In this document: positions 971 to 39,317 of the stretch, piece by piece
Layout of the letters: each line of letters opens with the position of its first letter
Position numbering within the stretch: the first letter of the stretch is position 1
DNA from: a virus
Lineage: Duplodnaviria > Heunggongvirae > Uroviricota > Caudoviricetes
Virus record (IMG/VR): IMGVR_UViG_2695420380_000015
Reading direction: 5' to 3' (one strand)
DNA: 39,317 nt
Position numbers and translations under genes: made by a program
Notes under the pieces: model-generated
Told to the model about the DNA's origin: nothing
The model's database searches: none
What the model saw: the letters and a program-made list of their open reading frames with translations, nothing else

Positions 971-2934
971 ATGTATGTCATTGCAAAAGAACTGATTGGC
1001 GCGCCCGGAATGCCTGCTACAACAAAAGGTATTCGCCAGGCATTACAACGTTACGTACAAGGGAAAAGCTGTTGTTCCCGTCGTCGCTCAGGCTCTAAAG
1101 CAACTGAATACAGCATCGACTGTTTACCTGAAGTGACGCAGCAGGCATTACGTGAACGCTACGCCCTGCAACTGATGACGCAAAAAGCCGATGAATCACC
1201 GGCTCCGGTGGTGACAAAGGCCAGACGCTCACCTGCCGTGGTTGATGCGGTGGAGGCATATCGCGGATCACCCCAACTGATGGTCGAACGCCTCAATGCC
1301 CTGACTGAAAACCAACGTAAAGTGGCAGAGGCACGAATAGCGATCGTCAGCGAGGTGCTGAAAATCGCGCAACAACCCGGCTTTAGTTGCGCTAAGGCTA
1401 TCCGGTTCCTCGTTAACAGCCTGGCACGATCACAACTGGACGAGCGCATTGTGGCAATGGTTGAGACGGCGAACGCCAAAAAGGGAAACAGCCGCGCGTT
1501 GAGTGAAATCACGCTGAAACGCTGGATTGCGGCCTTTAACAAGGCACAGAACGCCGCTGAACGCCTGCTTTTACTGGCACCGGGTAAACGCCAGGAAATA
1601 AAAGCCGAAGATATTAACTGGCTGCCCGAATTTCTGGCGCAGTATCGCCAGTCAAACGGCCGACCAATGACCGAGGCTTACGAGGATTTTGTTGCTGAAT
1701 GGCAGCACCGGCACGCTGATGAGCCTTATATGCTCGATATCATGCCCTCTTATGACACCATTCGCCGCGCAATGAAGAAACTGCCGGAAGTGGTGAAACA
1801 AAAAGGCCGGGTAACTGGCAGTGAATACCGTCAGCTTGAGGGATTCACGCGCCGCGACTGGTCCAGAATGCCGGTGAATTATGTCTGGATTGGTGACGGT
1901 CACGGCATGAAGCTGAAATGCGCGCACCCGGTTCACGGGCGGCCATTCGCACCGGAAGTGACCTTTGTTATCGACGGTGGCACGCGCTTTGTGGTGGGCT
2001 GGAGCCTTGACCTGGCTGAAAATGTTTTCGCCGTAGCCGGTGCCATACAGCACGGTATTCGCCATCATGGCAAACCGTTTCTGTATTACTCGGATAATGG
2101 CTCCGGGGAAACCGCCGACGTCCTGGATAAGGAGATTGTGGGGATACTGCCACGACTGGGGATTAATCACCCGACAGGGATTGCCGGTAATCCGCAGGGA
2201 CGGGGCATTATCGAACGGCTTAACCGCACATTACCGATGCGCATAGCCCGTAAATACCGCACCTATTTCGGGAAAGGAGCAGATCGCGAGACGTTACGTA
2301 AAACCAACCGCGATTTACGCTCGGCATTCAGTGCCCTGCAACAGGGCAAACGGCTGAACGCCCGGCAGCAGTCAGCGATGCGTGATTTACCGTCCTGGTC
2401 TGAACTGATTGATGCCATTCGTGACGGTGTTGAGTGGTACAACAACCGGCCGCACGATGAATTACCCATGAAGCCGAACGGTAAACATTACAGCCCGGCG
2501 GAGTTCAGAAAAAAACGCCTGGCGGAAGAGGACACGGAAATTGAATGGCTGTCCGATGTTGAACTGCGGGATATGTTCCGGCCGATGGTGGAGCGCCCTG
2601 TAAGACGCTGTGAAATACGCTGGCTGAATAATATTTACTACGCGCCCGAGCTGCGTGACGAGCATGGCCGTAAGGTACTTATCAGCTATGACATTCATGA
2701 TGCCGAACGAATTACCGTGCGCCGCCCGGATGGCAGCGTGATTTGCGAGGCGGTATGGGACGGCAATAAACGCGAAGCCTTCCCTGTCAGCGCGGAATAC
2801 TACAAACAGCAGCAGCGCCTTAAAGGCATGCGTAAACGCGCAGAGGAAAAAATCCGTGATGCCGAGGATGAGGTTGTCAACGTGCTGGAGCACAAGCCGC
2901 AGGAGCCCTGGCTGGAAAACATATACCGCCCTGT
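971..2934 (+). CDS. A: DDE transposase, MuA-like; 3' end lost in the N run, so the track's 762-aa read-through to 3259 is not trustworthy
   Basis: Long ORF starting 1 nt after ner. Contains a DDE-type core (WIGDGHG..., YYSDNGSGET..., IIERLNRTL) and sits ner-A-B as in Mu. Confidence 0.85.
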
Positions 2935-3238
2935 NNNNNNNNNNNNNNNNNNNNNNNNNNNNNNNNNNNNNNNNNNNNNNNNNNNNNNNNNNNNNNNNNN
3001 NNNNNNNNNNNNNNNNNNNNNNNNNNNNNNNNNNNNNNNNNNNNNNNNNNNNNNNNNNNNNNNNNNNNNNNNNNNNNNNNNNNNNNNNNNNNNNNNNNNN
3101 NNNNNNNNNNNNNNNNNNNNNNNNNNNNNNNNNNNNNNNNNNNNNNNNNNNNNNNNNNNNNNNNNNNNNNNNNNNNNNNNNNNNNNNNNNNNNNNNNNNN
3201 NNNNNNNNNNNNNNNNNNNNNNNNNNNNNNNNNNNNNN
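2935..3238. other. Run of N (masked or unsequenced) covering the transposase 3' end and the B 5' end
   Basis: 304 consecutive n characters. Confidence 0.99.
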
Positions 3239-4163
3239 TTATTGATGGCGGCGTACTGACGCAGTATGCCATCGCCAGAGAGGCGGGAATTTCCGACGGC
3301 ACATTATCGGCTTTCCGTAAGGGAAAATATAAAGGCGATAACGCTGCTGTGGCTGNNNNNNNNNNNNNNNNNNNNNNNNNNNNNNNNNTTCCCTGCGCTC
3401 CTGGTATGAGAACTGGAATAAACAAAGCGCACTGCCGGAACCGCCGCAGTTTGTGGAAACTCAGACAGTCCAGGAGCTGCGCGCACTGTTTCAGGCGGTT
3501 CGCCTGATGGGCTGTATTAACGTTATTGTGGGCGTACCGGGTGTGGGTAAAACGGCCACTGCCCGTAATTACTGCCAGGAGCAACCAAACACCTGGATGA
3601 TCACCCTGTCACCCGCGCACTCCAGCGTCACGGAGTGTCTGCTGGAGCTGGCCGATGCGCTGGGGATTGATTACACCCGCGCGAACAAAGGGGCATTATC
3701 CCGCGCCATCCGCCGTCGCCTGATGGGAACGCGTGGACTGGTGATTGTGGATGAGGCGGATCATCTTGGTATTGACGGTCTGGAGCAACTCCGGGCAATT
3801 CAGGACGCCACGGGGATCGGGATGGTGCTTATTGGTAACCCGCGCGGATTGTTTAAAGGTGGACGCCGCGCCTTTGATGATTTATCGCGCCTGTTCAGCC
3901 GTCTTGCCCGTACAAAACAACTTCGCAAGGCCAAAAAGGCGGATGTGCTGGCCATTGCCATGGCGTGGGGGATCAGTGGTGAGGCCGAGCTGGCCGTCAT
4001 GCAGGCTATCGCTGAAAAGCCGGGAGCGTTACGCGTTCTGACACATACGCTTAACCAGGCGTGGCTCACCGCCAGCGGTGAAGGCGCGGCGCTGACAGAA
4101 AAACATATTAATGCGGCCTTTAAAGAGGTTTATACCAACCCTGAATTACTCTCACAGGTGTGA
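3239..4163 (+). CDS. B: MuB-like AAA+ ATPase / transposition target-capture protein; true start is inside the N run, and the gene also crosses the 33-nt N run at 3356-3388
   Basis: Frame-0 reading from 3240 gives an HTH-like N-terminus (QYAIAREAGISDGTLSAFRKGKYKGDN). Walker A GVPGVGKT at 3531-3554. Stop at 4161-4163. Follows A as in Mu. Confidence 0.85.
3356..3388. other. Run of N inside the B gene
   Basis: 33 consecutive n characters. Confidence 0.99.
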
Positions 4164-32454: not shown

Positions 32455-33335
32455 TGTTTCATGTTGATAATAATTCCGGCGTGGCGAATATGCCTGCGCT
32501 GGCACCGGCGCAGAGTAATACCACCACCTGGTTTACCGAAGGTGACGGACAAAAAGGTATCAGCTGGATTGGTCAGGACTGGCTGAATATTCTCCAGGCC
32601 GAACTGCTGAATATTCTGGCTGAAGCCAGTATTCAGCCGGATAAGGCGCAGTTAAACCAGCTTACGCTGTCCATTAAAGCCATTATCGCTGCGAATGCCT
32701 TTTCCCGGAAAAATAACCTGAAAGAAATTGCTGATGCCGGTGCGGAGGCCCAGCGTCTGGCCCGTGGTTATCTTGGTCTGGGGACGCTTGCCACAAAAAA
32801 CAGTCTTGGTCCCGCTGACGTTAATGCCCTGGCGAAGGATCAGAATCTCGCCGACCTGGAGAATAAGGGAACCGCCCGTAATAATCTGGATGTTTACAGC
32901 AAAAGCGAAGGTGATAACCGTTACCTGCGCAGGGAGCAGAACGGCGCAGACATTCCGGATAAAGGGGCTTTTATCGATAACGTCGGTTTACGGGAAACGG
33001 TAAACAGGGCGGCGAATGCCCTGCCATCGGACGGCACCGCCGTTGCCGCGAACAGGCTGGCAAATGCCCACACAATTAATGGTGTTCCCTTTGACGGGAC
33101 GCAGGATATCACTATCTCATCAGGAACAGTAACCGCCATAAGACTGGGGTCGGTGACCGCACATATGCCCGGAACATGGGAAAGCTGGGATCTGAATCTG
33201 GGGGGCGGCAATGTTCTTACCGGAATTAAAGTACAGGATGTCGGTAAGAATACGGCAGATAACGTCGGCGGCGTGTATTACCGGCCGTTGCAGTATCTGT
33301 TAAATGGAGCATGGGTGACGGCTGCAAGTATATAA
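32454..33335 (+). CDS. Tail fibre protein (Mu S-like): constant N-terminal part, then a C-terminal part inside the invertible segment
   Basis: 293-aa ORF; N-terminus [22 protein letters not shown]...[16 protein letters not shown] is tail-fibre-like; the gix-like site and the inverted repeat lie inside the gene. Confidence 0.8.
32970..32995. promoter_or_regulatory. gix-like recombination site (left): TTATCGATAACG TC GGTTTACGGGAA
   Basis: Resembles the Gin crossover-site half-sites (GGTTTAC-GGAA) and is mirrored by the right site. Confidence 0.55.
32983..33106. repeat. Left inverted repeat (about 124 bp) of the invertible tail-fibre segment
   Basis: Reverse complement aligns with 34178-34292 at high identity, apart from a roughly 25-bp diverged patch. 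Confidence 0.85.
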
Positions 33336-33366: not shown

Positions 33367-33888
33367 TTACTGTGGCTGCTCAGGCCATTTAATGGCGTTA
33401 AATTCAGCTTCTGTTTTAATGGCGGGTAGTTCCATTTTCTTCACCTGACTGATGTATGCCATCCATTGGGTAAGTGCTGCTCTGTCTTCATCGCTGATGG
33501 TGCCCAGTTGTAGCTCCGTTCTCCAGTCATTAATTTTTTCATATGCCTGATTAAGATATGACTGGCGCATTGCTTCCAGTTTTCTTGCGTAGTTAACCGG
33601 AATACGGGAGATTATGCCATTATCAAACTTCCAGTTTCCTGAAATATCCGTGCCTTCAGGGAGTTCATCGACCTCAACCACAGAAAACCCCGCAGGATAC
33701 AGCGCCGAGGCGTCCTGTGATATTGAGCAGATAACGCCGCTGTCAGGTGTTATGCAAAGTTTATATTTTTTGGTGAATAATGGCAGGGATTCGTAGAAAT
33801 CCTTACCATCTTCACTCTGGAAATACTGAACATTATTACCATATGGCATATTTTCAGGATAATAACGGGTTATATTTTTTAGTTCCAT
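33367..33888 (-). CDS. Tail fibre assembly protein (Mu U/U'-like), currently on the minus strand
   Basis: 173-aa ORF with RBS AGGAGG, directly downstream (on the minus strand) of the alternative tail-fibre C-terminal cassette. Confidence 0.8.
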   Translation of the reverse strand: MELKNITRYYPENMPYGNNVQYFQSEDGKDFYESLPLFTKKYKLCITPDSGVICSISQDASALYPAGFSVVEVDELPEGTDISGNWKFDNGIISRIPVNYARKLEAMRQSYLNQAYEKINDWRTELQLGTISDEDRAALTQWMAYISQVKKMELPAIKTEAEFNAIKWPEQPQ

Positions 33889-33939
33889 AAAATCCTCCTG
33901 GAAATAAATCTGTTTTAAAATATATTATTTACTGACTAT

Positions 33940-34332
33940 TTATAACTGAGATACCGTAATCCATGTACCTCCGACTAATTTTTGCAGGGGTCTGAATGCT
34001 ATAAAATCGTTTGAAGCATCAACTTTACTGTCAATCTGCAGGCCTGCCATAACATTACCGTACGCAGAGTAATATGCCCCACCGTACATTACCTGCCTGT
34101 TCTCTGCTCCCAGCCTGATATCCTGGATATATCGGGAATCCGCATCCTGCTGTGTTATACCAGAAGTGATGTTTATGTCCTGCGTCCCGTCAAAGGGAAC
34201 CCCATTAATATTTCTTGGGGTGGCGAGTCTATTCGCGGCAACGGCGGTGCCGTCCGATGGCAGAGCATTCGCCGCCCTGTTTACCGTTTCCCGTAAACCG
34301 AGGTTTTCAGGAAAGCCAGGATTAACTCTGTT
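33940..34332 (-). CDS. Start-less alternative tail-fibre C-terminal cassette (S'v-like), silent in this orientation; would fuse to the constant S part after inversion
   Basis: Open frame on the minus strand with no start codon. Begins with the same about 40 aa as S ([26 protein letters not shown]...[11 protein letters not shown]), then diverges; stop at 33942..33940. Confidence 0.7.
   Translation of the reverse strand, partial: NRVNPGFPENLGLRETVNRAANALPSDGTAVAANRLATPRNINGVPFDGTQDINITSGITQQDADSRYIQDIRLGAENRQVMYGGAYYSAYGNVMAGLQIDSKVDASNDFIAFRPLQKLVGGTWITVSQL
34178..34292. repeat. Right inverted repeat of the invertible segment
   Basis: Inverted copy of 32983-33106. Confidence 0.85.
34276..34303. 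promoter_or_regulatory. gix-like recombination site (right): TTTCCCGTAAACC GA GGTTTTCAGGAAA
   Basis: Mirror of the left site, with the same central dinucleotide in inverted orientation; 75 bp upstream of the invertase gene. Confidence 0.55.
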
Positions 34333-34378: not shown

Positions 34379-34951
34379 ATGCTGATTGGGTATATCAGGG
34401 TGTCAACAAATGACCAGAATACGGCGCTACAAAGAAATGCGCTGGAATGTGCAGGATGTGAGCTGTTTTTCGAAGACAGAATAAGCGGTAAGACAAGGGA
34501 GCGTCCCGGACTTAAACGCGCATTAAAGCGACTCCGGCCAGGGGATACCCTGCTGGTCTGGAAACTGGATCGCCTTGGACGCAGTATGCAGCACCTTGTC
34601 CTTTTAACAGAAGAACTCCGGCAACGCGGCGTTAACTTCCGCAGCATTACGGACAATATTGATACATCCACTCCCATGGGACGTTTCTTTTTCCATATAA
34701 TGGGCGCGCTGGCGGAAATGGAGCGGGAACTCATTATTGAACGTACACGCGCGGGTCTTGCTGCTGCCCGTGCTCAGGGGCGTCATGGCGGCAGACCTCA
34801 GAAACTGACAGAGAAAGAGCGGGAGCAAATCGCCCGTTTGCTGGCTAATGGCGAGTCCCGTAAACAAATCGCACTGATATTTGATATTGGCCTTTCCACC
34901 CTTTATCGTTATTTTCCTGCCTCACCAGCTCCGTCACCAAAAGTACCGTGA
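34379..34951 (+). CDS. gin: Serine recombinase DNA invertase (Gin/Hin/Pin/Cin family)
   Basis: 190-aa product with MLIGYIRVSTNDQNT (catalytic Ser), LVWKLDRLGRSM, MGRFFFHIMGALAEMERELIIERT and a C-terminal HTH, as in Gin. Confidence 0.9.
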   Translation: MLIGYIRVSTNDQNTALQRNALECAGCELFFEDRISGKTRERPGLKRALKRLRPGDTLLVWKLDRLGRSMQHLVLLTEELRQRGVNFRSITDNIDTSTPMGRFFFHIMGALAEMERELIIERTRAGLAAARAQGRHGGRPQKLTEKEREQIARLLANGESRKQIALIFDIGLSTLYRYFPASPAPSPKVP

Positions 34952-35036
34952 CGCTTTTTTGAATTTCCGCAAAACACATATTTTTCAGCGGTCGCTATTC
35001 TGACTCTGTTTAATTCAGAAACAGGCAGAAAAGACG

Positions 35037-37091
35037 ATGTCAGACTCCAAGTGGAAAATGCTCTCCGCCATGCCCGGAGAGTTTTCAGTCAAGGTTGCCG
35101 GTGGCACGGTGGCATTTATTGAAAGCCCTTTCCGCCCTTCGGGTAATAAAGGGGGGATCACCTTCGCAGACTGCGTGATCCGCTTCAGCACGAAAGAGCC
35201 ATTATGGGTAATGCCGGTATCCGGTAATCCCAGTGCAGAAATCACCAGTTCAGGCGTGACTGGCATCATTCCAATCACATCTGACGTGGCCGGAACGCTC
35301 ACGCCCTCCGACTGGAATGCACCGGATAACGCCGGGCCTTCCGGTAGCACGAATGGCAGCAGTTCAGAGCCGGAATATTACTTTGTTGTCATTCTCGCGG
35401 GTCAGTCAAATGGCATGGCCTACGGCGAGGGGCTGCCGTTACCGGATTCGTTTGACCGCCCGGACCCACGCATTAAGCAACTGGCACGCCGCAGTACGGT
35501 AACGCCCAACGGTACGTCGTGTACATACAACGACATCATTCCGGCAGACCACTGCCTGCATGATGTTCAGGATATGAGCGGGATAAACCACCCGAAAGCT
35601 GATCTGGCAAAAGGCCAGTACGGGACTGTCGGTCAGGGGTTGCATATTGCCAAAAAACTGCTTCCCTATATCCCACAGAATGCCGGGATACTTCTGGTGC
35701 CCTGTTGTCGTGGCGGGTCAGCATTCACCACTGGAGCCGACGGCTCATTCAGTGAGGCCAGCGGTGCTTCCGCTGATTCTTCACGCTGGGGGGCCGGTAA
35801 ACCTCTGTATCAGGACCTGGTAAGCCGCACCAAAGTCGCGCTGGCGAAAAACCCGAAAAACAAACTTCTGGCTGTGGTCTGGATGCAGGGAGAGGCAGAC
35901 CTTGCCTCAGGAAGCCAGCAGCATAATAGTTTATTCACGGCCATGGTTCAGCAGTTCAGAACTGACCTGGCTCCGCTTGCTGCGCAGTGCGTGAGTGGAA
36001 ATGCCACCACGGTGCCGTGGATTTGCGGTGATACCACGTATTACTGGAAAAACGCTGGCACCGATAAATATGAGGCAGTATACGGTGGCTACAAAGGCAA
36101 GGAAGCACAGAAAATTTTCTTTGTACCGTTCCTGACGGATGAGAATGGACAGAGCACGCCAACGAATGCTCCGGCGGAAGACCCGGATATTGTGGCTGTC
36201 GGGTATTACGGTGCAGCATCCCGAACCCAGGGCAGTTTTGTTTCGACACAGCGTGACAGCCATTTCAGCTCATGGGCACGCAGGGGCGTCATTTCAGACC
36301 GTCTGGCCTCAGCTATTATGCTCCATGCAGGGCGCACGGCTGAACTGATGCGCGGGCAGACCGTGACACCACCGGATGAGAAGCCGTCACCTGATACACC
36401 ATCAAAACCGTCCACGCCACCCGCAGACACCACGACGATGAGTACGCTATTTGCTTACCGGGCATCTGAGTCTGAAGGACGGTTGACACCACAGGGTTGG
36501 GCTGCCGGAGGTGGCAAGGCTCAAATCGTGGATGATGCCGGAGCCAGCGGGGGTAAGGCAATGAAACTGACCAAGGAAACAGGAAGAGCCCCCTGGTACC
36601 TTGAGCATGATGCTGGTAATGGTGCGGACCTGCTGGGTAAAGGTGGTCTTGTCAGTTGTCGTTTTAAACTCGATGGCGCGCTTACGGCTAATCAGTACGC
36701 ACTGGCGCTGTACTGGCCGGTTTCTGCCCTGCCGCAAGGGGTTACTCTGGAAGGAAATGCCGGTCATAACCTGCTGGCATCGTTCTACGTACAGAGCGAT
36801 GCCACAGACCTTAACGTGATGTATCACAAAGGAAACACGGCGCAGAACACGAAGCTGGGGTCATTCGGCGCATTTAATAACGAATGGCATACGCTGGGCT
36901 TCCGTTTTGCCGGTAACAACAGTATTGAGGTGACGCCGGTCATTGATGGTAAGGACGGGACACCATTCATGCTGTCGCAGTCTCCGGTCGGCACGTTTAC
37001 GGCAGACAAGTTGCGCGTGACCGATATCACTAAAAATGCGACTTACCCGGTACTGATTGACAGTATCGTGGTGGAAGTGAATAACGCGTAA
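35037..37091 (+). CDS. SASA-family (SGNH-like) O-acetylesterase resembling NanS / prophage NanS-p sialate O-acetylesterase, with extra N- and C-terminal domains
   Basis: 684-aa ORF. Core motifs YYFVVILAGQSNGMAYGEGLPLPD, GQYGTVGQGLHIAKKLLP, VPCCRGGSAFT, WMQGEADL resemble E. coli NanS (YjhS) as I remember it. Flanked by an about 120-aa N-terminal domain and an about 250-aa C-terminal domain. Confidence 0.7.
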   Translation: MSDSKWKMLSAMPGEFSVKVAGGTVAFIESPFRPSGNKGGITFADCVIRFSTKEPLWVMPVSGNPSAEITSSGVTGIIPITSDVAGTLTPSDWNAPDNAGPSGSTNGSSSEPEYYFVVILAGQSNGMAYGEGLPLPDSFDRPDPRIKQLARRSTVTPNGTSCTYNDIIPADHCLHDVQDMSGINHPKADLAKGQYGTVGQGLHIAKKLLPYIPQNAGILLVPCCRGGSAFTTGADGSFSEASGASADSSRWGAGKPLYQDLVSRTKVALAKNPKNKLLAVVWMQGEADLASGSQQHNSLFTAMVQQFRTDLAPLAAQCVSGNATTVPWICGDTTYYWKNAGTDKYEAVYGGYKGKEAQKIFFVPFLTDENGQSTPTNAPAEDPDIVAVGYYGAASRTQGSFVSTQRDSHFSSWARRGVISDRLASAIMLHAGRTAELMRGQTVTPPDEKPSPDTPSKPSTPPADTTTMSTLFAYRASESEGRLTPQGWAAGGGKAQIVDDAGASGGKAMKLTKETGRAPWYLEHDAGNGADLLGKGGLVSCRFKLDGALTANQYALALYWPVSALPQGVTLEGNAGHNLLASFYVQSDATDLNVMYHKGNTAQNTKLGSFGAFNNEWHTLGFRFAGNNSIEVTPVIDGKDGTPFMLSQSPVGTFTADKLRVTDITKNATYPVLIDSIVVEVNNA

Positions 37092-37097
37092 GCAGGA

Positions 37098-37139
37098 TAA
37101 AAAAATGCCGCCGGTAAGGGAAAACAAGAAACCGGCGGC
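37098..37139 (-). terminator. Rho-independent terminator oriented for leftward transcription: stem GCCGCCGGT / ACCGGCGGC with a T tract on the minus strand (A run 37098-37106 on plus)
   Basis: 9-bp perfect stem read from the sequence; the U tract follows the hairpin only when read on the minus strand. Confidence 0.5.
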
Positions 37140-37235
37140 AAAAAGATCGTTATATCCAAAGCAAAAAATGCAGTGCACCTTTTTACCTAACAGATATTAC
37201 CGGTGTCAACACCATGTCAATAATTGGGAGGGATA

Positions 37236-37418
37236 ATGACATTTTTACAGCTTATTTTATTGTATTTCTGCACGGCAGTATGTGCGTTATATCTGGTGAG
37301 TGGTGGTTATAAGGCCATCAGAAATTATGTTCGCCGCAAAATTGAGGACGCAGCAGCTGAAAAACTCAGTAAAACAGCGCAGGTAACTCCGCTCCCAAAA
37401 GACCCGACCCAGCCCTGA
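37236..37418 (+). CDS. Small membrane protein (60 aa, single TM)
   Basis: ATG at 37236 with GGGAGG 4 nt upstream; hydrophobic N-terminus FLQLILLYFCTAVCALYLV. Confidence 0.45.
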   Translation: MTFLQLILLYFCTAVCALYLVSGGYKAIRNYVRRKIEDAAAEKLSKTAQVTPLPKDPTQP

Positions 37419-37453
37419 TTGCAGGGCTTTATTCCCGCATAAGGAGGATATAC

Positions 37454-37708
37454 ATGCCAGAAATTAAAGGCACCGTCACTGAAGACCTGGTAAAACAGGC
37501 ACTGTATTCCGGTGAAGTAAATAAGTTGCTGAAAGCGCAGGTCCGCAAGGATTTTGAGGCACAAATCGACACTTACGTTGATGAAGTGCTGGCAAAACTT
37601 ATTGGGCCAGCAGTTGCGGCCAGTGATGCTGATAATGAGCCGAAAACCGACGCGCAGCCAGAGCAACCAGACCCGGCTCAGCCCGGAACTGACAGTACCA
37701 TGATGTAA
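37454..37708 (+). CDS. Small acidic hypothetical protein (84 aa)
   Basis: Strong RBS AAGGAGG 7 nt upstream of the ATG. Confidence 0.5.
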   Translation: MPEIKGTVTEDLVKQALYSGEVNKLLKAQVRKDFEAQIDTYVDEVLAKLIGPAVAASDADNEPKTDAQPEQPDPAQPGTDSTMM

Positions 37709-37875: not shown

Positions 37876-38169
37876 TTAGTCCGATTCACGCTTTTGTAGA
37901 ATCGTTCCCAGAATGCTATACAGCTCATTAGCCTGTTGCTCCATCATTGAGACGGAGGCTATACGGTGCAAAGTGATTTCAGGAGGTGGCACACCTCCAT
38001 CTTCTTGCTGTGGAGGAAAAACATAAGATTTAATAAAAAAGTTGAAGCATATGAACTCTCCCGCACTCGAACTGTATTTGCAGGCATCTGAATAATCGGA
38101 AAAATAATCATTATAGATTTCCGCATTTTCAATCATTTTTCGATTTCTCGTCGTTACATGATTGTCCAT
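37876..38169 (-). CDS. Hypothetical protein (97 aa) in AT-rich DNA, antisense to the neighbouring genes
   Basis: Minus-strand ORF in a clearly AT-rich segment between the esterase module and the mom promoter region. Confidence 0.4.
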   Translation of the reverse strand: MDNHVTTRNRKMIENAEIYNDYFSDYSDACKYSSSAGEFICFNFFIKSYVFPPQQEDGGVPPPEITLHRIASVSMMEQQANELYSILGTILQKRESD

Positions 38170-38357: not shown

Positions 38358-38382
38358 AATCGATCGTTTTTGTCGATCGATT
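38358..38382. promoter_or_regulatory. Perfect dyad AATCGATCG-N7-CGATCGATT carrying two GATC sites, upstream of com-mom (candidate C-activator and/or Dam/OxyR-controlled operator of the mom promoter)
   Basis: 9-bp inverted repeat read from the sequence; a third GATC lies at about 38295. The Mu mom promoter is regulated through upstream GATC sites and a dyad C-binding site. Confidence 0.45.
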
Positions 38383-38425: not shown

Positions 38426-38626
38426 ATGTATCGAAACATACGGTGCCGACATTGTAACAAGCTACTGGCACGAGCCAGCTTCAGTTATCTGGAAGTTAAA
38501 TGTCCGCGCTGTAAAACCCTCAATCAAATCACATCTCAGAGCGCCACAGAGCACCCCACATACACAAGGAAATCCTGTCGTGGGGAACAGAAAGCAAGTT
38601 ACATCCCGTATCATCAGCACGCCTGA
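38426..38626 (+). CDS. com: Com-like zinc-finger translational activator of mom
   Basis: ATG at 38426 with AGGAGG 10 nt upstream. CxxC...CxxC motif ([10 protein letters not shown]...VKCPRCKTL) as in Mu Com; overlaps the 5' end of the mom frame. Confidence 0.75.
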
Positions 38627-39317
38627 ACTTATTCACTATAACGACAATATCGTCGGTTATGGCTCCCGTGAGTTACGGGTTGAGACAATAAGTTGCTGGC
38701 TGGCCCGGCTGGTCGTCGTCAATAAACATTACAGCCATCGTTTCGTAAATAATTCCTACCTTCATCTGGGCATATTTTCAGAACGGGAGCTGGTTGGCGT
38801 AATGCAATGGGGTTATGCCCTTAATCCAAACAATGGTGCACGCGTCGTAACTGGCACGCAGAACCGCGAATATATGGAGCTTAACCGGTTATGGCTGCAT
38901 GACTGTATGCCGAGAAACTCCGAATCAAGGGCAATCAGTTACGCGCTCAAACTAATCAGACAACTTTATCCGCAGGTGCAGTGGGTTCAGTCGTTTGCAG
39001 ATGAGCGTTGTGGCTGTCTTGGTGTCGTGTACCAGGCAAGCAATTTTGATTATGTAGGCAGTCATGAAACAACATTCTATGAACTTGATGGCGAGTGGTA
39101 TCACGAGATTTGCAAGAATGCAATCAAACGAGGAGGACAGCGAGGTGAACATCTGCGGGCTAATATCGATAGAGCCAGTGTTCATAAATTCCGTCAGTTT
39201 CGTTACATCCGGTTTCTGGACAAGAGAGCCAGAAAACGCCTTAACACAAAGCTATTCAAAGTCCAGCCTTACCCAAAACCACAAACAGTTAAAACTGGTT
39301 TGAAAGAGAGTGAATGA
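38580..39317 (+). CDS. mom: Mom-like DNA modification protein (anti-restriction); start uncertain, GTG at 38580 is the nearest in-frame start before the com stop
   Basis: Long ORF ending at the window edge, overlapping com in another frame; com-mom arrangement at the right end as in Mu. Confidence 0.7.

Follow-up and report, generated by a model that had tools for sequence, protein, structure and literature searches.

Why does a Mu-like prophage carry a sialic acid esterase between its DNA invertase gene and its com-mom genes, and what would the enzyme do there? The locus lies in a 39,317-nucleotide stretch of Caudoviricetes DNA (IMG/VR record IMGVR_UViG_2695420380_000015, hereafter the window), for which an earlier note, made from the sequence alone, had described a 2-kb NanS-like esterase gene between gin and com-mom. 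Taken as a whole, the best explanation is that the product of this gene is probably a working sialate 9-O-acetylesterase of the NanS-p type, and that the gene is cargo of the family of Mu-like prophages to which Sp18 of the E. coli O157:H7 Sakai genome belongs. New here are an N-terminal module that is Mu-specific and is not DUF1737, and domain-level exchange with lambdoid alleles of the gene.

The gin-com gap measures 3474 bp in the window. In reference Mu, gin ends 94 bp ahead of com, which agrees with the baseline assumed in the earlier note. The open reading frame (ORF) that it placed there is exactly as described and directly follows the tail-fibre inversion module, next to the fibre switch as the note had said; the gap carries not one gene but four, namely the esterase gene, a DUF1378 gene, a DUF826 gene and a minus-strand ORF. 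Mu, D108 and SfMu share the overall organisation of the window, with gin and com-mom, but in them com follows gin after about 94 bp and the esterase cassette is missing, as it is from another E. coli Mu-like prophage (L047). The position of the cargo is unusual, as had been suggested, solely relative to Mu, D108 and SfMu; the cassette is a standard feature of Sp18-family Mu-like prophages.

The esterase and its modules

By sequence, the product of the ORF is a NanS-p-type sialate O-acetylesterase built from three modules (Table 1). The crystal structure of E. coli NanS/YjhS (3PT5) aligns to residues 110-428 (E 1.8e-117, 58% identity over 315 positions), and that of the NanS-p C-terminal domain (6YP6) to residues 469-683 (E 7e-98, 69% identity over 215 positions). 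Pfam recognises SASA (1.5e-13) and DUF6645 (7.4e-68) in the protein, and PHROG_143 covers residues 71-684 (E 1.7e-296). Clusters of the same or nearly the same protein in E. coli and Shigella sonnei carry the names ‘sialate O-acetylesterase’ or ‘DUF6645 domain-containing protein’. The active-site blocks of 3PT5 are GQSNA, RGGSAF, MQGEFD and R-x-SHFS (PMC10792757), and all four (GQSN, RGGSAF, (M)QGE and SHFS in their shared form) are kept in the window protein and invariant across the aligned homologs. These matches bear out the NanS-like identity first proposed for the gene, and the catalytic serine and histidine, whose loss had been named as a finding that would speak against it, are both retained (nucleophile Ser124 in GQSN, base His409 in SHFS), and the oxyanion-hole blocks are kept with them.

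Comparison with known enzymes places the protein nearer to phage NanS-p than to chromosomal NanS in its layout. NanS, the chromosomal 9-O-acetyl-Neu5Ac esterase of E. coli, consists of one domain with about 326-337 residues and belongs to the nan/yjhBC sialic-acid regulon, whereas the window protein has 684 residues in three modules and is prophage-borne. The NanS-p proteins of 933W (L0105/z1466) and phi24B (vb_24B_21, or gp84) have the same SASA/SGNH core with the same catalytic blocks, and lambdoid NanS-p also shares the C-terminal domain (DUF6645, 6YP6), the downstream DUF1378 and DUF826 genes and the lack of a signal peptide. The window esterase has no signal peptide, hydrophobic leader or transmembrane segment. 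According to the account in PMC8065619, Franke et al. 2020 proposed that the C-terminal domain of NanS-p binds carbohydrates. The published domain scheme of NanS-p consists of DUF1737, SASA and a C-terminal region (PMC10462455). Of the two profiles with which the earlier note advised a search, SASA was found and DUF1737 (PF08410) was not. The additional terminal domains that it noticed are real: the C-terminal one is the standard lectin-like domain of NanS-p, and the N-terminal one is something other than DUF1737.

Table 1. Features of the gin-to-mom region, with positions in the window or residues of the esterase
Feature	Position	Strand	Evidence or remark
gin-type DNA invertase	34379-34951	+	Pfam Resolvase 1.6e-51 and HTH_7; PHROG_125 DNA invertase 1.9e-94
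gin-esterase spacer, 85 bp	34952-35036	+	no terminator; no convincing sigma-70 promoter
Predicted NanS-p-type sialate O-acetylesterase gene, 684 aa, ATG start, three modules	35037-37091	+	Pfam, PHROG and PDB matches
N-domain, aa 1-92, predicted all-beta, in place of DUF1737	35037-35312	+	
Linker 1, aa 93-110, Ser/Gly/Asn/Pro-rich	35313-35366	+	alignments
SGNH/SASA catalytic core, aa 111-433	35367-36335	+	3PT5 match
Nucleophile block GQSNG	aa 122-126	+	Ser124, codon 35406-35408; GQSNA in 3PT5
RGGSAF block	aa 225-230	+	same as RGGSAF in 3PT5
MQGEAD block	aa 283-288	+	MQGEFD in 3PT5
RDSHFS block	aa 406-411	+	His409, codon 36261-36263; R-x-SHFS in 3PT5
Linker 2, aa 434-467, Pro/Ser/Thr-rich	36336-36437	+	
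C-terminal lectin-like jelly-roll domain (DUF6645)	36438-37088	+	6YP6 match; Pfam
DUF1378 gene, 60 aa (RefSeq start), second in cassette	37236-37418	+	Pfam DUF1378 1.2e-31
DUF826 gene, 84 aa, third in cassette	37454-37708	+	Pfam DUF826 6.4e-16; PHROG_311 4.9e-28
Orphan ORF, 97 aa (RefSeq: 86 aa)	37876-38169	-	low-GC (~42%) slot in the DUF826-com interval
com	38426-38626	+	Pfam Zn_ribbon_Com 1.3e-12
mom	38580-39317	+	Pfam Mom 1.6e-77

The N-terminal domain and mosaicism of the gene

Lambdoid NanS-p begins with DUF1737, the capsid anchor in phi24B, whereas the window protein begins with an unrelated 92-residue domain (the N-domain) that is predicted to be all-beta. No Pfam family matched residues 1-92, and BLASTP found no similarity to the N-terminus of phi24B NanS-p (E 1.1). 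PF08410 is absent from the proteins of the window, of Sp18 and of M3, a relative that lacks gin, while the lambdoid and P2-like controls match it. P2-like phages such as vB_EcoM-569R5 resemble the window in carrying NanS-p-like esterase cargo in a non-lambdoid myovirus; there, DUF1737 is kept and the gene is placed after the P2 lysis genes, not beside gin or mom.

In searches of large collections, the N-domain showed a narrow spread. Among 50,697 phage records, tblastn found it solely in two Mu-like elements nested inside Shiga toxin (Stx) phages. Among 1.84 billion cluster representatives, phmmer returned fragments of the N-domain itself and one true relative at 30% identity (P0126), which is the start of an esterase at the end of a contig from a Mu-like prophage of Salmonella enterica. 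In this prophage, two small ORFs stand upstream of the esterase in a locus with Mu Gp45/46/J/48 baseplate genes, a fibre gene, an invertible segment and a resolvase gene, and the esterase itself starts with the N-domain, followed by a Pro-rich linker and then PEYYFVIPVAGQSN. Other divergent partial sequences with it also occur in Salmonella (P0128, P0138). A weak match in P0127 (E 6.5e-4) was rejected as spurious, being a low-complexity protein on a 1.3-kb contig. A scan of species-representative genomes gave no confirmed match, and no second copy of the N-domain was found elsewhere in the window prophage. In IMG/VR, all 34 of the 34 loci with the N-domain have Mu-like markers wherever flanks are available, and none has DUF1737. 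The domain is under purifying selection both between the window and Sp18 (proportions of nonsynonymous and synonymous differences, pN 0.23 and pS 0.78) and between the window and a second relative without gin, CI5 (pN 0.014, pS 0.31); for the esterase core and C-terminal domain, dN/dS is about 0.1-0.2. As far as these searches reach, the N-domain appears to be a 92-residue module that is present in E. coli, Shigella and Salmonella and confined there to Mu-like backbones, and it may serve in attachment or oligomerisation.

In every Salmonella record with an esterase of the Mu-type N-domain (P0126, P0128, P0130 and P0138 from Salmonella enterica, and L008), the gene is partial and ends at a contig end. 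Because multi-copy nanS-p appears to break short-read assemblies, the variant is probably under-counted in draft genomes.

The remainder of the gene has a different history from its N-terminus. Homology to the late region of a non-Stx lambdoid prophage (L007), in the order Q...nanS-p, DUF1378, DUF826, holin and lysozyme, was detected by blastn at 87.8% DNA identity and is confined to positions 35369-37370. Its left breakpoint is at codon ~111, exactly where linker 1 meets the core, and its right breakpoint lies within DUF1378. As a type, lambdoid nanS-p occupies the late region after Q/stx, upstream of holin S; the window gene occupies the Mu-like gin-com gap. A domain-by-domain comparison of 85 full-length homologs with the window protein as reference gave a mosaic of identities. 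Alleles with the Mu-type N-domain are 95-100% identical in the N-domain, 81-99.7% in the core and 81-100% in the C-terminal domain; in P0026, for example, the three values are 100%, 81% and 92%. Lambdoid alleles of the DUF1737 type other than those of 933W and phi24B have cores up to 88-91% identical (highest value 90.7%), and their C-terminal domains reach 92.6%, whereas the Sp18 allele has 59% in the N-domain, 70% in the core and 73% in the C-terminal domain. This mosaic indicates that the core and lectin-like modules have been shuffled between Mu-like and lambdoid prophages, and that the N-domain has remained tied to the Mu backbone. The exchange would have taken place repeatedly in shared hosts, with the linker-core junction as the left breakpoint. 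In four members of the Sp18 lineage (L039, L040, L042, L043), the C-terminal domain is just 40-46% identical to that of the window, which points to an alternative group of C-terminal domains having been swapped in. In two IMG/VR records (L011, L016), genes of lambdoid type stand after an esterase with the Mu-type N-domain, namely DUF1378 (57%), then holin (99-100%) and endolysin (89-92%). Either Mu-like and lambdoid prophages have truly recombined there through the esterase gene that they share, or the repeated gene has led to a chimeric assembly.

The arrangement is neither rare nor recent to the public record. Sakai Sp18 carries gin (ECs_4992), the cassette (ECs_4993-4995), a minus-strand ORF (ECs_4996), com and mom, and the same gin-to-mom gene order is found in Mu-like elements within Stx phages (LC727881, LC727895). 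These three also share with the window the N-domain family and a Mu-like backbone, with head genes 96-99% identical. In M3 and CI5, the cassette is retained and stands immediately downstream of the gene for fibre assembly, and the cassette block is present at 34/34 of the IMG/VR loci. The window-type N-domain occurs in 28-32 complete E. coli genomes and the Sp18 type in 205, such that the Mu-type N-domain is present overall in about 233 of 5426 (~4%); com-mom of the window type is found in about 226 of the same 5426. As these counts are similar, essentially all Sp18-family Mu-like prophages have the cassette. Complete E. coli genomes of human, animal and environmental origin contain an identical 5-kb region. 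The arrangement has been public in GenBank since the Sakai genome (sequenced 2001), where ECs_4993 (679 aa) is annotated ‘hypothetical protein’, and the literature that we searched holds no link of nanS-p to Mu-like phages, Sp18 or ECs4993.

Neighbouring genes and the prophage backbone

The esterase, DUF1378 and DUF826 genes stand in the same order in phi24B and in the non-Stx lambdoid prophage. In those two, holin and endolysin genes follow the trio, whereas in the window the trio has no adjacent holin or endolysin gene. The window DUF1378 protein, which has one N-terminal transmembrane helix (Kyte-Doolittle hydrophobicity 2.27, residues 7-25), is 52-74% identical to the lambdoid and Sp18 copies, and DUF826 is 39-70% identical to its counterparts. 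A strong hairpin lies just past the esterase stop codon at 37107-37139 (GCCGCCGGT...ACCGGCGGC), inside the stretch homologous to lambdoid prophages; its T-run is on the minus strand only, so that antisense RNA, rather than the esterase transcript, would be terminated by it. Between DUF1378 and DUF826, a 35-bp spacer contains an exact, palindrome-like TTAT-N6-ATAA site (37429-37442, TTATTCCCGCATAA), the sole one in the window.

A moron in the strict sense has a promoter and terminator of its own and is expressed from the repressed prophage; among the genes of the gap, only the minus-strand ORF has a moron-like layout, with a promoter-like site at 38190-38161 and a terminator-like site at 37831-37817. 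It has no match in Pfam, PHROGs, NCBIfam or PADLOC, and a search for defence-system or other annotation of DUF1378, DUF826 and this ORF gave nothing significant. Because Sp18 has an unrelated ORF in this place (ECs_4996), 37876-38169 is a variable moron slot outside the esterase cassette. A 25-bp palindrome with two CGATCG (Dam GATC) sites stands just upstream of com (38358-38382) and is presumably similar to the region of the mom promoter in Mu, which is under Dam/OxyR control.

In the window a Mu-like prophage of E. coli is present in complete form, encoding a repressor, ner, MuA, MuB, GemA, the late activator C, lysis genes, the Mu-type portal, MuF, protease I, the major head protein gpT, a sheath, a contractile tail and a baseplate, followed by the invertible fibre segment and gin, and com-mom forms the right end. 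Placement in the Sp18 family follows from MuA/B, the Mu portal/F/I/T set, the contractile tail, the invertible fibre segment with gin, and com-mom. Gene products are about 75-100% identical in amino acid sequence to those of Sp18 genome-wide, and the backbone is sharply mosaic against it (L048): early and head genes are 95-100% identical (gpT 98.7%) and the late activator C 84%, while the tail genes are just 74-80% identical, the esterase allele is diverged and the minus-strand ORF is unrelated. In particular, sheath (77%), tape measure (75%), DNA-circularisation protein and gpP all fall within 74-77%, fibre is 80% and fibre assembly 61% identical, gin is 81% identical to ECs_4992, and com-mom (38426-39317) returns to 95-97%. 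Mom is 76-78% identical to that of Mu, D108 and SfMu (78% for Mu).

Two further features of the backbone can be mentioned. The match of MuA to Sp18 ends at 2935 and that of MuB begins at 3390, from residue 54; because G+C content falls to 0.36 across 2501-3500, this suggests that an AT-rich segment was replaced or inserted at the A/B junction (~2935-3390). At the fibre locus (which takes in 33367-34314), inverted repeats of 86 nt (32976-33061 and 34223-34308) are 93% complementary, and the invertible segment contains only one fibre-assembly gene, on the minus strand, and a truncated alternative fibre C-terminus. In M3 and CI5, which lack gin, the segment is frozen in the orientation seen here, and the assembly gene runs antisense to that of the fibre.

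Function and site of action of the enzyme

The NanS-p proteins of EDL933 and O104:H4 cleave O-acetyl groups of 5-N-acetyl-9-O-acetylneuraminic acid (Neu5,9Ac2) and of mucin glycans, and support growth on Neu5,9Ac2 (PMC8065619; PMC8319020). By analogy, the window esterase, because it has no signal peptide, would accumulate in the cytoplasm and then be freed at phage lysis, after which it would de-O-acetylate Neu5,9Ac2, whether free or bound to mucin, in the manner of lambdoid NanS-p, and the resulting sialic acid would become usable by E. coli. Several points weigh against this explanation. The protein is only ~62-66% identical overall to NanS-p of the phi24B/933W type, and the closest lambdoid alleles (88-91% in the core) are apparently not among the characterised enzymes. 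Structure prediction of the terminal domains, which the earlier note had advised, came out only in part: the all-beta fold of the N-domain is a model of moderate confidence built from a 3-sequence alignment, and the full-length AlphaFold2 (AF2) model, built from an alignment of 25 close homologs, was unusable and was discarded (predicted local distance difference test score, pLDDT, 37). Expression signals are also wanting. Promoter-like sites in the window are no more frequent than chance and none is a convincing esterase promoter; the motif TTAT-N6-ATAA, which we take to be that of C-dependent late promoters of Mu, occurred at counts near chance with none upstream of mom, and the search was abandoned as unreliable. 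A promoter-like site at 34881-34909 was rejected as an esterase promoter, as it is not conserved in M3 or CI5. The sequence of the 85-bp spacer ahead of the esterase gene is conserved in M3 and CI5 and partly in Sp18, and no plus-strand terminator was found after the gene. The expression data met with for Sp18 give a count of differentially expressed genes for the prophage as a whole. Mu-like phages are not inducible by the SOS response.

One could read the lack of an identified promoter, together with the variable neighbouring slot, as signs of a passenger left over from recombination, whose function is not under selection in a Mu-like prophage. This is highly improbable. The 684-codon frame is intact with all catalytic residues invariant, dN/dS is ~0.1-0.2 in the core and C-terminal domain, pN is well below pS in the N-domain, and ~233 complete genomes have the gene, which is conserved in E. 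coli, Shigella and Salmonella alike; selection and conservation largely refute a passenger. A more specific alternative is that the protein acts at adsorption as a receptor-modifying tail enzyme on O-acetylated bacterial glycans (O-antigen, capsule, K1-type polysialic acid) and not on mucin. SGNH esterases are known as tailspikes, as in phage G7C and the Vi phages. The idea has been raised for NanS-p in a review (PMC8065619), and it would suit both the location of the gene directly after the tail-fibre inversion module and an N-domain that diverges in step with tail and fibre genes. We nevertheless consider it very unlikely, given that the window protein has no tailspike-like adaptor or trimeric beta-helix domain, that its core is 58% identical to catabolic NanS, that its core and C-terminal domain are interchangeable with late- or lysis-region lambdoid alleles having sialate-esterase activity, and that the gene is kept in relatives without gin whatever the state of their fibres.

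The alternative of virion display is compatible with the esterase identity; what sets it apart is the site and the beneficiary of the enzyme's action. A 2026 preprint reports that in phi24B, DUF1737 of gp84, which consists of one helix and three beta strands, binds hexon centres as a hexamer and serves as the capsid anchor, that the esterase is present in virions, and that it is cleaved off after capsid binding (bioRxiv 10.64898/2026.04.10.717836). The Mu-specific N-domain could be an analogue of DUF1737 that anchors the esterase to the capsid, tail or baseplate of a Mu-type particle, and the phage would then carry an enzyme that modifies or binds mucin, a reading that we regard as possible but rather unlikely. 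In its favour, DUF1737 gives way, exactly where the linker meets the core, to a folded domain on which purifying selection acts and which is found only on Mu-like backbones (34/34 viral contigs, E. coli genomes and the Salmonella record L008) and stays linked to them while the other modules recombine; both linkers are of low complexity, and linker 1 has an SSS(E)P motif like the proposed cleavage site of gp84. On the other hand, searches found no structural or sequence likeness of the N-domain to any known decoration or adaptor protein, P2-like myoviruses also have esterases of the DUF1737 type, so that DUF1737 is not strictly tied to one capsid type, and linkage to the Mu backbone may simply reflect where the recombination breakpoint lies. 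Co-evolution of the N-domain with the capsid was considered and rejected: between the window and Sp18, head genes are 96-99% identical (gpT 98.7%) and the N-domain 59%. The N-domain instead tracks the diverged tail and right-end module, and because its divergence goes along with that of the tail module, in contrast to the conserved capsid, a tail component would be the likelier virion partner, if there is one.

A tentative generalisation, which we think unlikely, is that NanS-p proteins are enzymes of modular build, displayed on virions through an N-terminal anchor that is exchanged to suit each particle, with DUF1737 in lambdoid and P2-like phages and the 92-residue, cupin-like beta-domain in Mu-like phages; the latter would most plausibly bind a tail or baseplate component. 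If true, the esterase-DUF1378-DUF826 trio would be a portable ‘mucus-interaction’ cassette among unrelated temperate phages of gut Enterobacteriaceae.

For the preferred explanation, a released NanS-p-type esterase carried as prophage cargo, the consequences concern both the hosts and the phages. NanS-p has been studied as a fitness and virulence accessory of Shiga-toxin phages, and the literature searched treats NanS-p as lambdoid proteins. The Sp18-family cassette is thus an uncounted nanS-p copy in many Shiga toxin-producing E. coli and commensal genomes, which has to be reckoned with when genes are deleted and growth on Neu5,9Ac2 is studied. It also means that recombination at the level of domains is active between Mu-like and lambdoid prophages. 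If the N-domain is merely a neutral linked leader, the gene is an ordinary mosaic cargo gene; given the report that DUF1737 is a capsid anchor, the locus offers a natural case of an ‘anchor swap’, in which an enzyme that serves the phage particle may be set against one that serves the lysogen.

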